Origin: a virus
Taxonomy: Duplodnaviria; Caudoviricetes
Direction: 5' to 3' (one strand)
DNA: 35,730 bases
Virus record (IMG/VR): IMGVR_UViG_3300033076_000104
Span: 1 to 35,730 of that record
Positions within the stretch are counted from its first letter, which is position 1, and the number at the start of each line of letters is the position of its first letter. Below the pieces are notes generated by a model. That model was not told the origin of the DNA. It searched no databases and was given only the letters and a program-made list of their open reading frames with translations. Shown one piece after another: positions 26,341-33,194 of this stretch. The position numbers and the translations under genes were made by a program.

Positions 26341-26939
26341 AATTTCTCCAGTTGTTTCAATTTAAGTTCAAGTTCGTTTAAGAATTTTTTAACTTCATCC
26401 TCAAGCATCGTCAAATAGGCTTTGTCAGGCGTAAACCTTGTAACAAATAACTGCAAATGCTCAGGGAAGTCTTGATTATACGAAACGAAATCGCACCAGT
26501 CACGACCAGTACATAAGCATTGCCAAGCCATCTGAGGCTTGTACTTTTCAGGAACTACACCACCCAGGACATACTCCAAGTGACTACCTGAGCGAGGACA
26601 CTTAATCTCAATAAGACCTTCGCCAACTAAACCATCAGGGCTTGCGCCTGTCATCGCTATTGATGGATGAGCAATAAATCCAACTTCCTCAACTGTTGAG
26701 TTTGTTTGAATCTCATACATTGCTCTAGCGATAGGCTCAAGTTCTACGCCGCGCTCCATGTCTGCGTTTGTATAACTTTCTGCTTGCTTGCTAGTCAGGC
26801 GCTCGCAAATTAGCTGCGCCATGTAGTTAGCTCTTGTTGCAGAATAGCCTGACTTTGTTTTAGCAATGACATCAGCTACTCGTGAAGCTGTAACTTTTCC
26901 AAGCCTGTCAGCAAACCAACTTTTTGTGCGCTGCTCCAT
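26337..26939 (-). CDS. YqaJ / lambda-exonuclease-family recombination nuclease
   Basis: MEQRT..W...RLGKVTAS, M.RG.ELEP.AR, GASPDGLV, IEIKCP, Y..QM.WQ, WCDFVSY. Confidence 0.95.
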   Translation of the reverse strand: MEQRTKSWFADRLGKVTASRVADVIAKTKSGYSATRANYMAQLICERLTSKQAESYTNADMERGVELEPIARAMYEIQTNSTVEEVGFIAHPSIAMTGASPDGLVGEGLIEIKCPRSGSHLEYVLGGVVPEKYKPQMAWQCLCTGRDWCDFVSYNQDFPEHLQLFVTRFTPDKAYLTMLEDEVKKFLNELELKLKQLEKL

Positions 26940-27325
26940 TATTCTTCACCTTTAAATTTTAAACCATGCTCCATCATTGCTTGTTTAACAAAATTTAAAC
27001 CTTTTATTCCTAAATTAGGTATTTTTCTCATTTCTTTTTCATTCCATTTACATAAATCTTCTTTCATCCAAATATTTTCACTAATTAAACATCTATGATA
27101 TCTAATTGGCAAATTTAATTCTTTTAAATTAGTATTTTTGTAACGAAACTGATTTTCTTCTTCATTTTTCCATTCTTGCAAAATACTATCACGATGCTCT
27201 ACCATTGCTTTTGCCATTCGATACGCTGTTTGAGCTAAAGCAAAAGGATTTGTAATTCCCATTTTTTCAATTTGCGCTTGCATTGCACAAACAGCAAAAT
27301 GGTCTAATAACTCTTCTTTATTCAT
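26939..27325 (-). CDS. RNA polymerase alpha-subunit C-terminal-domain-like protein fused to a small phage helical domain
   Basis: LKELNLPIRYHRCLISENI....DL......EMRKIPNLGIKGLNFVKQAM..HGL matches the alpha-CTD pattern (L.L.VR..NCL..E.I..I.DL.....ELLK.PNLG.KSL.EI...L...GL). Confidence 0.8.
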   Translation of the reverse strand: MNKEELLDHFAVCAMQAQIEKMGITNPFALAQTAYRMAKAMVEHRDSILQEWKNEEENQFRYKNTNLKELNLPIRYHRCLISENIWMKEDLCKWNEKEMRKIPNLGIKGLNFVKQAMMEHGLKFKGEE

Positions 27326-28464: not shown

Positions 28465-29061
28465 TTACTCCTTAATACCGTGAACGGCTTCGCAAATCCT
28501 TCTTAATTCTTTTTCTTGTGCATCCCTCGCAGCATCCCCCGCAGCATCCATCGCAGCAGCCCTCGCAGCATCCCTCGCAGCAGCCCACGCAGCATCCCAC
28601 GCAGCATCCCTCGCAGCAGCCCTCGCAGCATCCCTCGCAGCATCCCACGCAGCATCCCTCGCAGCAGCCCTCGCAGCAGCCCACGCAGCAGCCCTCGCAG
28701 CATCCCTCGCAGCAGCCCACGCAGCATCCCACGCAGCAGTTATCGCAGCATCTAATTCTTCATATGTTGCATTTCCGTACGCATATCTTTCAGCAACATT
28801 TAATGCGTCAAGGCTTCGCTTATCGGTCATTAAATGCTGAACCTGTCTAGCGCACCACACAGCAAACAAACGAATCTCTTTATCATGTCCATCAACTGCT
28901 CTTAAACACCATAACGCATCGTCCAGTCCGTTGCTATCTAATATGGTTGTAATAGATAAAAGCTCATCATCTGCTTGTGTTTTGTTTAAATGTTTGAGCA
29001 ACTTTTTCCAGCCATATGCACATGGGCTGTGTTCTCTTATCTTATTTAATGTTGTATTCAT
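28465..29061 (-). CDS. Helical protein with Imm5-like core and AA(R/W)(D/A) tetrapeptide repeats
   Basis: PC..GW.KLL..L...DDALWCL...RLFAVWCARQV.HL..D.RS..AL.VAERYA.G.AT.EEL.AA followed by repeats; AAGGAG RBS. Confidence 0.8.
   Translation of the reverse strand: MNTTLNKIREHSPCAYGWKKLLKHLNKTQADDELLSITTILDSNGLDDALWCLRAVDGHDKEIRLFAVWCARQVQHLMTDKRSLDALNVAERYAYGNATYEELDAAITAAWDAAWAAARDAARAAAWAAARAAARDAAWDAARDAARAAARDAAWDAAWAAARDAARAAAMDAAGDAARDAQEKELRRICEAVHGIKE
28522..28749 (-). repeat. 12-bp coding tandem repeat, 19 units, consensus GCTGCG(A/T)GGG(A/C)T
   Basis: 228 bp = 19 x 12, counted from the translated AAxx units. Confidence 0.95.
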
Positions 29062-30986: not shown

Positions 30987-31186
30987 AAAAAGTTAAAAAA
31001 GATATTCTTGTAAATATCATGTCTCAACGCTTTATTTCTGCACTAGAGGCTTTTAGACTTGCAGGCACGATGCGTCTTTCAGCTTATGTTTATTTGCTGC
31101 GCCAAGAAGGGTATAACATCATTTCCAAGTGGAATGATGATGTAACAAAGGACTATAAACTTTACAAAATTGTTAAAAGGAACTAA
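30983..31186 (+). CDS. Small winged-helix protein (HTH_39-like)
   Basis: ISALEAF...GTMRLSA.V..LR.EGYNI...W......Y.LY. Confidence 0.75.
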   Translation: MKKVKKDILVNIMSQRFISALEAFRLAGTMRLSAYVYLLRQEGYNIISKWNDDVTKDYKLYKIVKRN

Positions 31187-31189
31187 AAT
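31161..31189 (+). promoter_or_regulatory. Promoter TTTACA-N17-TAAAAT upstream of the replication gene leader
   Basis: Spacer holds the same AAATTGTTAAAAGG box as the leftward promoter. Confidence 0.65.
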
Positions 31190-31194
31190 AGTTT

Positions 31195-31289
31195 GAAACA
31201 TCGGCTAGGTTGTGGGTAGCTCCCATTACCGAAAAGCGAAACCACCCCGCCTGCCGCTTGTTTCTTCAGGGTGGAAATTTGGGTGCGTT
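31195..31289 (+). ncRNA. Candidate structured 5' leader RNA (three-way junction plus possible pseudoknot)
   Basis: GAAACA/TGTTTC and CGGC/GCCG basal stems; TGGG-TAGCT-CCCA arm; GCG-AAACCACCC-CGC arm; loop CCACCC complementary to GGGTGG 31269-31274. Confidence 0.6.
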
Positions 31290-32030
31290 ATGAAATTAAA
31301 ACCAAAAAATTGGGCTGTATTCCAGCACTATAAAAATCGTATGCCTCCTTGGATTAAGTTCCACAGGAATCTGTTAATTGACAGAGAATATATGAGTTTG
31401 CCTATTGCTAGCAAAGCGATAGCGCCATTGCTCTGGTTGCTAGCATCTGAGTCACAAGACGGCTCTTTTGATGCGTCAATTGCTGAACTAAAGTTTAGAC
31501 TGCATTTGACTGAAAAAGAGATTGAAATTGGACTCAAGCCATTGATTGATAAAGGATTTTTCTATTATGCTAGCAAGATGCTAGCAGATTGTCAGCAAGA
31601 TGCTTGCCTAGAGACAGAGAGAGAGAAAGAGAAAGAGGTAGAGAAAGAGGCAAAGAAAGAGTCACAAATTGGTATTTGTCCTCCTAATGTTTCAACAGAA
31701 GTTTGGGAAGAATTCATTTCACACAGAAAATCAAAGAAAGCTAAAGTTACACAACTTGTTATAAACGGAATTGTTAAAGAAGCCAATAAAGCTGGGTGGC
31801 CTGTTGAGGATGCCTTGAAAGAAGTAATAATTAGAAATTGGCAGTCCTTTAAAGCTGAGTGGGTCGCAGCAAAGCAAAACCCTGCTGATGTCGTGCGTCA
31901 TACAGTTCCATCCAAGCAAGAACGTGACCCTGAATTAGTTAGGCTTGAGGAAGAAAGAAAGTTAGCTGTCAAACCCAACCCTGAGATGATGGCAAAGTTA
32001 AAACAATTTACCAATGGGATGAAATTATGA
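31290..32030 (+). CDS. Replication initiator (lambda O-like architecture); start ATG 31290
   Basis: KNW..FQHYK.R.PPWIK N-domain, E/K linker encoded by a purine tract, C-domain W.EF..HRK.KKA..T...W..F...W. Confidence 0.85.
   Translation: MKLKPKNWAVFQHYKNRMPPWIKFHRNLLIDREYMSLPIASKAIAPLLWLLASESQDGSFDASIAELKFRLHLTEKEIEIGLKPLIDKGFFYYASKMLADCQQDACLETEREKEKEVEKEAKKESQIGICPPNVSTEVWEEFISHRKSKKAKVTQLVINGIVKEANKAGWPVEDALKEVIIRNWQSFKAEWVAAKQNPADVVRHTVPSKQERDPELVRLEEERKLAVKPNPEMMAKLKQFTNGMKL
31568..31661 (+). repeat. Putative replication origin: four 11-bp-period iterons followed by a GA-rich tract
   Basis: TGCTAGCAAGA TGCTAGCAGAT TGTCAGCAAGA TGCTTGCCTAG then agagacagagagagagaaagag...; extra TGCTAGCA palindromes at 31406 and 31438. 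Confidence 0.7.
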
Positions 32031-32320
32031 AAGAGATATTTTTTGCTTTGATGATTAGTTCATCATCTGCCCATGCGTTAATCATTGCTGAAATGTATAA
32101 CAAAGCTAACGGCAAAATTGTTATAACTGATGAGGTTTGCAATTTGGGCGGTACTGCAAAACTTGCGTATACGACAATTCCTAATGGGAAAACAGACTTG
32201 GGATGTTGGGTATACGATGAAGATTACATTCACATCAAATGGCAAGAAGGCAATAGATTGCAATCTTATCCATTTGAATTGTGGGATGTAAAAGCAAAAG
32301 CTAAGAGGAATGGAATATGA
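32027..32320 (+). CDS. Hypothetical secreted protein
   Basis: Signal peptide ending SAHA; N..NGKIVIT...C...GCW.......I.W......YP. Confidence 0.7.
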   Translation: MKEIFFALMISSSSAHALIIAEMYNKANGKIVITDEVCNLGGTAKLAYTTIPNGKTDLGCWVYDEDYIHIKWQEGNRLQSYPFELWDVKAKAKRNGI

Positions 32321-33194
32321 CATGGATAATCAGCCAAGCCTTAATGAACTCGCTTTATTTGCAGGCGCAGGAGGAGGAATCCTTGGTGGGAAAATGCTTG
32401 GATGGAGAACAGTTTGCGCCGTTGAATGGGAGCCATATCCAGCAAGCGTATTGTGCGCCAGACAAAATGACGGTTTTCTCCCGCCTTTCCCGATTTGGGA
32501 TGACGTTCAAACCTTTGACGGAAAACCTTGGAGAGGAATTGTTGACGTTGTATCTGGGGGATTTCCTTGCCAAGACATTAGTGCAGCAGGAAAAGGCGCA
32601 GGAATTGACGGAGAACGAAGCGGAATGTGGAGAGAAATGGCTCGCATCATTCGTGAAGTACGACCAAGATTCGTCTTTGTGGAAAACTCACCAATGCTCA
32701 CTTCTCGGGGACTTGGAACCGTTCTCGGAGACTTGGCCTCAATGGGGTTTAATGCGAGATGGGGAGTGTTGGGAGCAAACGCAGTTGGTGCACCCCATCA
32801 AAGAGAGCGCATTTGGATTTACTGTTCCCACCCCAGTAGCAAGCGATGGAACAACAGGGTCTGTAATTGGGAAAAAAGACAACTTTTACGAAACAAAAAC
32901 TGGGATGCCTCGAAAAATAAATCAAAACGGGAAGGATGGTTCAGTTGGGTTGGGCAGATTGGTAAAAATGTGGCCAACTCCAACATCTCACAACGCAAAA
33001 GAATGTGCAAGCCCAAGCGAGTTTACCAGAAACACACCGACATTAGCAGCCCAAGCTGGTGGGAAATTGAACCCAACGTGGACAGAGTGGCTGATGGGGT
33101 GGCCGCTGGAGTGGACAGACTTAAAGCCATTGGAAACGGACAAGTTCCATTATGTGCAGCAACAGCATGGAGAATCCTAAGTGAGCAAATCTAA
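32310..33194 (+). CDS. C5-cytosine DNA methyltransferase, catalytic (alpha) chain lacking motif IX; start may be ATG 32322
   Basis: Motif I LFAGAGG, IV GGFPCQDIS, VI ENSP, VIII PHQRERIW, X LKAIGNGQVP. Confidence 0.93.
   Translation: MEYDMDNQPSLNELALFAGAGGGILGGKMLGWRTVCAVEWEPYPASVLCARQNDGFLPPFPIWDDVQTFDGKPWRGIVDVVSGGFPCQDISAAGKGAGIDGERSGMWREMARIIREVRPRFVFVENSPMLTSRGLGTVLGDLASMGFNARWGVLGANAVGAPHQRERIWIYCSHPSSKRWNNRVCNWEKRQLLRNKNWDASKNKSKREGWFSWVGQIGKNVANSNISQRKRMCKPKRVYQKHTDISSPSWWEIEPNVDRVADGVAAGVDRLKAIGNGQVPLCAATAWRILSEQI
32317..33180 (+). CDS. Overlapping +1-frame ORF, putative methyltransferase beta chain (target-recognition region plus motif IX)
   Basis: 287 codons with no stop inside the MTase gene; AGAGGA RBS 7 nt before ATG; ATGA coupling to the upstream gene; PTP/PTL repeats and LNPTWTEWLMGWPLEWT. 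Confidence 0.8.
   Translation: MTWIISQALMNSLYLQAQEEESLVGKCLDGEQFAPLNGSHIQQAYCAPDKMTVFSRLSRFGMTFKPLTENLGEELLTLYLGDFLAKTLVQQEKAQELTENEAECGEKWLASFVKYDQDSSLWKTHQCSLLGDLEPFSETWPQWGLMRDGECWEQTQLVHPIKESAFGFTVPTPVASDGTTGSVIGKKDNFYETKTGMPRKINQNGKDGSVGLGRLVKMWPTPTSHNAKECASPSEFTRNTPTLAAQAGGKLNPTWTEWLMGWPLEWTDLKPLETDKFHYVQQQHGES

Follow-up and report, generated by a model that had tools for sequence, protein, structure and literature searches.

Does the short leader of a phage replication gene fold into an RNA that controls translation, and if so, to what class of RNA does it belong and how might it act? The question is raised by a locus on a Caudoviricetes virus record (IMGVR_UViG_3300033076_000104), all 35,730 nucleotides of which were analyzed and are hereafter called the window. 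A first-pass annotation had placed a predicted transcription start near 31195 at the base of a stem closing a three-way junction, and had noted that one hairpin loop is complementary to two G-rich segments downstream, the second of them where the Shine-Dalgarno (SD) sequence should be. These pairings were taken to form a translational switch, or a processed antisense RNA, controlling the dosage of the replication initiator. All of the elements so named were confirmed in the window (Table 1). The P2 arm, UGGG-UAGCU-CCCA (31213-31225), is present as sequence but had been drawn too short; P2 extends further and holds an AGCU palindrome (31218-31221) in its loop.

Table 1 Features of the leader and its flanking genes in the window.
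Feature	Position	Strand	Basis or remark
Upstream winged-HTH ORF, 67 aa	30983..31186	+	PF14090 HTH_39, E 2e-8
Predicted sigma70 promoter	31161..31189	+	-35 TTTACA 31161-31166, -10 TAAAAT 31184-31189
P1 5' strand (GAAACA, T, CGGC)	31195..31205	+	Pairing in window; P1 pairs in relatives
Junction J1/2, UA of conserved CUAG	31206..31207	+	Rfam alignment
P2 hairpin, long variant; loop UAGCU 31217-31221	31208..31230	+	Predicted self-kissing loop
Junction J2/3 GAAAA	31231..31235	+	Rfam alignment; bases imposed by search patterns
P3 hairpin, 3 bp; variable loop AAACCACCC 31239-31247	31236..31250	+	
J3/1 (CU) and P1 3' strand, U-rich	31251..31264	+	
Site A (putative decoy) GGGTGG	31269..31274	+	Predicted 6-bp pseudoknot with 31242-31247, flush on P3
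Site B GGGTG	31281..31285	+	Shine-Dalgarno region of replication gene; predicted partner 31243-31247
Phage replication protein, 246 aa (O-like initiator)	31290..32030	+	PHROGs matches; ATG 31290

The leader and its locus

In the window, P1 pairs GAAACA (31195-31200) with TGTTTC (31259-31264) and CGGC (31202-31205) with GCCG (31253-31256). The P2 arm consists of three base pairs, a 1x1 internal loop and five base pairs, and the P3 stem pairs GCG (31236-31238) with CGC (31248-31250), with CCACCC (31242-31247) as part of its loop. The calculated duplex energies of this loop are -11.4 kcal/mol with site A and -9.2 kcal/mol with site B. A genome-wide search of the 35,730-base record found one leader copy and no second. 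The open reading frame that follows matched a replication protein (phrog_26426, E 1e-36) and an O-like replication initiation protein (phrog_678, E 1e-18) in PHROGs; a Pfam search gave no match. Within this gene lies an AG-rich repeat encoding a charged linker (31606-31652, +), which by analogy with O-like genes we assume may be related to an origin.

The predicted sigma70 promoter has a 17-nt spacer, scores 10/12 and would start transcription at about 31195-31196, at P1. The upstream ORF stops at a TAA that doubles as the 5' half of the -10 box and lies 8 nt before P1. Among relatives, TAnnnT occurred at -20 to -10 from the conserved CUAG in 149/277, compared with 28-36/277 in five control bins; TTG at a spacer of 17 was found in 31 of those 149, and the commonest gap from the last T of the -10 box to the first P1 base was 6 nt. 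This conserved spacing implies that the fold likely begins at +1 of its own transcript. The start near 31195 at the basal stem is a predicted one. Transcripts that begin in upstream genes may also read through into the leader. In 59/123 relatives the end of an upstream ORF is no more than 24 nt from CUAG. An origin of the -10 signal as a stop-codon artefact was rejected, the signal being present in 32/59 relatives with a nearby stop and in 32/64 without.

Relationship to the int-alpA family

A search of the window against Rfam matched 31198-31274 to the full int-alpA model (RF02996, positions 1-71 of 71) at 29.8 bits, below the gathering threshold of 35.8 (E 3.5e-4; E 4.9e-6 within the genome). 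No Rfam family reached its gathering score in the window, and int-alpA was the best of the seven matches at E<=10. The leader has the int-alpA three-way junction (CUAG / CGAAAAG / CCUG), with a P2 of 23 nt versus 13 in the model. Relatives with the same long P2 also score below the cut-off (29.1-35.4 bits), and most short-P2 relatives pass it. The window leader is a long-P2 variant of int-alpA and not a curated member, so the earlier suggestion that a known motif might be present was well placed. The phage or prophage context of the family holds as well, the window being a virus record with a replication and recombination module. Rfam types int-alpA as 'Gene; sRNA', whereas the window copy behaves as a 5' leader rather than a free-standing sRNA. 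The model breaks off within site A and contains neither site B nor the SD; in its consensus, one loop is complementary to the 3' end of the consensus itself and the P2 loop is ACGU.

Pattern scans of IMG/VR, GTDB genomes and metagenomes each returned at least 120 loci (at least 119 for the metagenomes), hence the loci are samples; for two patterns the number of stored IMG/VR stretches was estimated at about 800 and about 2,300. By record title, the GTDB carriers among the matches listed included Alpha-, Beta- and Gammaproteobacteria, Bacillota, Planctomycetota, Acidobacteriota, Bacteroidota and others. When 20 relative loci were searched against Rfam, 17 matched int-alpA, 12 of them above the cut-off, and three (L133, L146 and L014) had no match; 46 of 50 phage records matched, 36 above the cut-off. 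A blastn search of the window leader against cultured phages found no match. Enterobacter phage Tyrion is a cultured carrier of the family.

At L159 (about 896-1000, +) a copy scoring 50.7 bits has site A followed by a terminator-like hairpin and a U run in place of site B and the gene, and is possibly a small-RNA-only form. Another copy, at L747 (2501-2585, OP377721.1), belongs to a P22-like phage and sits in its late region, with a KilA-N gene on one side and, on the other, an 89-aa ORF that precedes terminase; relatives occur in 57/5,426 E. coli genomes, often ahead of DUF551 genes.

We take the motif to have been described by Weinberg et al. 2017. The word 'alpA' occurs 0 times in the main text of that paper (PMC5737381) and is also absent from the main text of PMC10690425. 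A literature search that covered these main texts found no account of an int-alpA mechanism and no use of 'RF02996'; 'int-alpA' was found only as an entry in a table of predicted sRNAs and as wording for gene order.

Comparative support for the fold

Folding of the window leader did not differ significantly from that of shuffled sequences (minimum free energy z -0.26 for 31190-31300, -0.78 for 31195-31292 and -1.84 for 31195-31262). Nor is the nested minimum the three-way junction: the junction has -24.1 kcal/mol, pseudoknot excluded, against minima of -25.6 to -29.5 kcal/mol for forms of 74-98 nt, and in the 98-nt form the minimum pairs the loop sequence with site B. The evidence for the fold is comparative. 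Among 436 unique elements, P2 pairs left free beside the imposed anchors form in 410 and 369, free P3 pairs in 407, 402 and 381, and the free P1 pair in 375. These positions, the first one to three pairs of each stem, are 85-94% paired and use all four Watson-Crick types, and the G-U type pairs fit the + strand. The junction bases were set by the search patterns, so that their invariance is not an independent result. Family-wide, long P2 arms accompany short P3 stems (rho -0.22, n=269; means 3.6 versus 4.7 bp), a link that may reflect one clade.

A variable loop matched to two sites

The P3 loop was analyzed in 483 loci among the matches listed (480 matched; 27 with a match dropped, having no 3-bp P3). 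These reduced to 330 unique elements, in which 193 different P3 loops had a length of 5 nt or more; the loops come from several phyla. When each loop was compared with its own next 51 nt, the longest Watson-Crick run averaged 5.85 and the second longest 4.87, versus 3.89 and 3.22 against the tail of another element (193 loops; z 30.7 and 35.8; 0/50,000 permutations). The match persisted in 78 pairwise-dissimilar loops (z 18.3 and 22.4). Upstream complementarity was at background (3.68/3.07), revealing no upstream target, as was a far-downstream control, and a direct-repeat control gave 3.32/2.76. Pairing coverage peaks at +16 to +20 and at +30 to +32. In a leave-one-out analysis of 233 loops, made without the two-site filter, site A pairs at all six 3' loop positions (76-94%) and site B at positions 2-6 (68-84%) and not at position 1 (65/205); the swapped background was 25-33%. 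The covariation of loop and downstream elements, on whose absence the switch was to have been abandoned, was thus found in the relatives for both sites.

Both sites lie in the expected geometry for 166/193 distinct loops, and in 151 of these 166 they share at least 4 loop nucleotides. As A and B use the same loop bases, one loop cannot hold both. Of 269 leaders in total, 248 have an ORF and 202 of these a recognisable SD; in 172 of the 202 the SD is overlapped by site B, and the start codon lies a median of 7 nt beyond B. The alternative decoy and ribosome-binding-site pairings envisaged for the window alone therefore recur across the family, as sites that compete for the same loop bases with B covering the SD.

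The two sites differ in detail. The loop base next to P3 pairs at A in 107/129 and at B in 23/97, so site A looks like a putative helix stacked on P3 and site B does not; the window is an exception in that its site B does pair loop position 1. Site length has a mode of 6 nt for A and 5 nt for B. Duplex energy is better for A in 92 of the 166, for B in 66 and for neither in 8, with means of -8.2 kcal/mol for A and -8.0 kcal/mol for B. The linker before A is U-rich, with G at only 1-4%, and the distance of A from the junction is independent of P1 length (rho 0.09, n=113). Site B starts 8-29 nt past the start of A, and the distance to it bears no relation to P2 length (rho 0.07, p 0.24, n=269). 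A U-rich tract (at least 6 U in 8) occurs in 91/269 leaders, versus 5 and 7 in two control windows. A universal intrinsic terminator after P1 was rejected, 178/269 leaders having no terminator-grade U tract. P1 has no A-U strand bias (159 versus 182, p 0.23).

Taken together, a real leader with two alternative loop pairings is very highly probable. In copies from gut-type phages (L022, L713 and L719) site B and the SD lie about 45 nt past site A rather than 14, and a second copy about 590 bp upstream has the same CCUUG loop core and a different P2 palindrome.

A self-complementary P2 loop

The wider collection held 710 loci among the matches listed (706 matched; 52 with a dropped match), of which 473 were unique and 376 had two sites. 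Patterns that leave P2 free contributed 353 elements to the P2 analysis, with 138 distinct arms and 81 distinct loops. A palindromic tetramer was found in 51 of these 81 loops and a hexamer in 15; within-loop shuffles gave 19.6 +/- 3.5 loops with a tetramer and a maximum of 33 in 20,000. Among P3 loops the count was 23/223. Two scans fixed an AGCU P2 loop and two others excluded the commonest P2 length; with all 10 AGCU loops removed, 41/71 loops retain a palindromic tetramer. Fourteen of the 16 possible palindromic tetramers occur, and in 9 of 25 groups with a common P3 loop and more than one P2, one palindrome is exchanged for another. GACG tetraloops are also present. As folded, 30/81 loops have no palindromic tetramer; only 6/117 cores have neither a tetramer nor, where one would be expected, a self-complementary dinucleotide.

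In 61/117 cores the middle of the palindrome is displaced by 0.5-1.5 nt to the 3' side of the hairpin axis, and in 6 it is at the mirror position, an offset that would fit a kissing loop and not a symmetric DNA operator. No outside target for the P2 loop was found (3.51 versus 3.61, n=142). Cofolding favours the P2 duplex by about 6 kcal/mol, as it would for any palindromic hairpin. Two RNA copies likely pair through this loop, a feature that is new relative to the first-pass annotation, which had missed the palindrome. By comparison among relatives, the three-armed fold, the two predicted competing pairings, the overlap of B with the SD, the palindrome and the putative promoter at P1 are established as features of the family.

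Downstream genes and copies per genome

One hundred downstream ORFs, many cut at about 85 aa, were drawn randomly from 187 with distinct N-termini, and 38 matched Pfam: DUF1376 (15), HNH types (7), HTH_36 (4) and DUF6291 (2), with single matches to integrase, Rha, antirepressor, KilA-N, T5orf172, DUF559, Dam, methyltransferase, DUF6387 and, weakly, LapD. PHROGs was searched with 32 selected ORFs, 30 lacking a Pfam match and 2 having one; 18 matched, comprising seven replication or primosomal proteins, five primase-like proteins, four nucleases or resolvase-like proteins, one tail chaperone and one more HNH protein. A protein-led search with the replication protein found three loci, two of them identical in the stretch examined, and none with the leader; the leader thus does not accompany this replication protein family throughout. 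It appears from its distribution to be a portable cassette placed ahead of dosage-sensitive genes. The role specific to initiator dosage that had been assigned to it is too narrow, as the family also precedes HNH nucleases, integrase and antirepressors.

Seven of the 50 phage records, a small and partly related sample, carry two copies. The P2 or P3 loop differs between copies in 7/7 and the palindrome in 6/7. In G009 and G020, near-identical copies carry GAUC and GACG in P2, with CCUUG in both P3 loops. Identical copies at L610 and L628, 35 kb apart on one metagenome contig, represent a duplication or an assembly repeat.

A proposed concentration-sensing brake and its alternatives

We propose, with a probability of roughly 0.45, that the int-alpA-type leader is a translational brake that senses the concentration of its own RNA, possibly with the sign reversed. 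In a new transcript the P3 loop would pair with site A, leaving the SD open and translation ON; A would capture the loop by virtue of its earlier transcription, its flush stacking on P3 and its fixed distance. As RNA accumulates, the P2 palindromes would join two leaders, and in the dimer a free loop would cover site B, block the ribosome and turn translation OFF. The free loop might come from a short leader that lacks A, through termination at the U-rich stretch or 3' trimming, or be released from A by dimerization. The predicted output is a burst of initiator that is then limited. Such a brake would explain why a decoy exists, since site A disarms the loop in cis, and why B need not stack. 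A 4-bp kiss and a 5-bp loop contact are weak, which counts against the brake; a short trans contact could suffice because the second contact holds the partner. Also against it, longer P2 arms do not go with a greater distance to B, which a loop might need in order to span a P2 dimer. The 30/81 P2 loops that have no palindromic tetramer as folded, and the pairing of B at loop position 1 in the window, likewise count against it. No source of A-less RNA is evident, because two thirds of leaders have no U tract and P1 has no A-U bias.

The near-equal duplex energies of A and B mean that the sequence does not fix the sign. A lone transcript might instead be OFF, its loop on B in cis, and dimerization might move the loop to A, its own or the partner's, so that translation would switch ON once the RNA passed a threshold, as might happen upon induction or when copy number is high. 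The long linker of B would reach the loop in any geometry (8-29 nt past the start of A), the nested minimum of the 98-nt form places the loop sequence on B, and a sigma70 promoter directly before initiators or nucleases would presumably need a default brake in a prophage. Of the studied precedents the closest is IsrK; it is an activator and not a repressor, which speaks for this sign and against the brake (PMC4825925, available text). We nevertheless consider it unlikely, because A is made first, is longer (mode 6 versus 5 nt) and stacks flush, all of which favours A as the default in cis. A switch acting purely in cis, with no P2 dimer in vivo, also seems doubtful. A protein or small ligand at the junction would flip the loop between A and B or, in a variant, a ribosome finishing the upstream ORF would loosen P1 in read-through transcripts. 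Conservation of junction bases across phyla, as in ligand-binding RNAs (an argument found in the available text of PMC5737381), and the nearness of upstream ORF ends (at most 24 nt from CUAG in 59/123; 8 nt before P1 in the window) would suit such a switch. It leaves the exchange of one P2 palindrome for another unexplained, the downstream genes share no common pathway, and the cluster of stop codons coincides with the -10 box, which is equally common where no stop is near (32/64 versus 32/59).

It is quite improbable that there is no switch at all, with equilibrium competition between A and B setting a fixed, low level of translation, as in a portable promoter with a rheostat. The similar mean energies of the two duplexes and the many dosage-sensitive genes downstream agree with this, but a weak SD would suffice without a 70-nt fold, and the palindrome would have no explanation. 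The differences between copies in two-copy genomes (7/7, with the palindrome in 6/7) and the presence of two independent variable codes are what would be expected if a processed leader silenced the matching leaders of superinfecting phages, the variants of loop and palindrome being immunity groups; autoregulation predicts the same insulation, however, the AGCU palindrome and a few loops are common to many unrelated phages, and there is no upstream target, unlike in P4 or C4, so that this is very improbable. Least credible is a DNA-level element (an operator or cruciform) or chance, which we give scarcely any weight. P2 is an inverted repeat and single-sequence folding is not significant, but the palindrome is off-axis and P2 therefore no symmetric operator, the G-U type pairs fit the + strand, and loop and sites are linked by complementarity and not by direct repetition (3.32/2.76). 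Covariation largely refutes this last reading.

The broader claim, that portable phage leaders in several phyla count their own copies through a palindromic kissing dimer and an exchangeable decoy/RBS loop, in a protein-free and allele-specific feedback on replication initiators, nucleases and integrases, we hold at slightly better than even odds. If it is true, thousands of phage loci would dose replication and nuclease genes by RNA concentration, and the family would be a natural set of orthogonal 100-nt feedback parts. With this proposal an orphan Rfam family gains a specific, testable mechanism.

Comparison with known systems

The C4 RNA of P1/P7 has two alternative loop targets, one of them near a ribosome-binding site, and controls replication or antirepressor genes. 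The P4 CI RNA resembles the leader in that a loop sequence has two alternative complementary targets, one near a ribosome-binding site, and sets a precedent for the action of a short isoform on the long form of the same transcript (PMC4825925, available text). In both systems there is a target on either side of the RNA, which is itself excised from a precursor, whereas here both targets are downstream, the fold starts at the predicted +1 and only one loop has outside targets. Identity with C4 RNA was rejected, as no C4-type model was among the seven Rfam matches at E<=10 and no upstream target was found; the earlier reading of a C4-type processed antisense RNA was accordingly dropped.

IsrK of the Salmonella prophage Gifsy-1 is alike in being a phage leader that is both an mRNA 5' end and possibly a short RNA, and in its short form it acts in trans upon the long one, controlling a dosage-sensitive gene (PMC4825925, available text). 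It differs in its long strand displacement, Rho-independent terminator, activation and coupled ORF, and a palindromic loop is not among the features described in the available part of that source. The Rfam isrK model had no match in the window at E<=10. The repZ leader of ColIb-P9 also places a loop-to-RBS-region pseudoknot before a replication initiator; there, the pseudoknot is activating, and Inc, an antisense RNA with a gene of its own, blocks it (PMC8383071, available text). Here, site B overlaps the SD, a decoy copy exists and there is no conserved leader peptide, and the PK-repZ model had no match in the window. A leader peptide coupled to the downstream gene was rejected for the family: starts lie 4-10 nt after A in 110/269 leaders versus 65-89 in controls, and 43 are ATG. 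In the window a four-codon frame (31279-31293, +) starts with TTG 4 nt past site A, and its TGA overlaps the ATG of the replication gene (ATGA); no conserved peptide of this kind was found in relatives.

Structural analogues of the P2 loop are found in retroviruses. Like P2, the HIV-1 DIS and the MoMuSV GACG loops have a palindromic hairpin loop with more unpaired bases 5' than 3', and GACG tetraloops are common to MoMuSV and the leaders; the MoMuSV tetraloop kisses through 2 bp, and functional RNA homodimers are rare outside eukaryotic viruses (PMC7357161, available text). The int-alpA leaders have mostly 4-nt palindromes and a phage mRNA setting, so the likeness is one of analogy only and not of homology. 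Like kissing-loop signals, the P2 loop appears to keep its self-complementarity while its sequence changes. The literature searches turned up no leader, bacterial or phage, in which translation is controlled through a palindromic loop that pairs with a second copy of the same RNA.

Other features of the window

Downstream of the replication gene, two ORFs of 294 and 287 aa (32310-33194 and 32317-33180, +) overlap almost entirely in different frames and match DNA methyltransferase PHROGs (phrog_363, E 2e-67; phrog_1008, E 2e-26), a possible case of conserved dual coding. On the opposite strand, a 198-aa ORF (28465-29061, -) without a match in a Pfam search carries a tandem repeat rich in Ala, Trp, Asp and Arg, and several other frames stay open across it. 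At 26939-27325 (-), between the ERF and YqaJ recombination genes, lies the gene for a phage protein that carries the C-terminal domain of RNA polymerase alpha (PF03118, E 2e-11).
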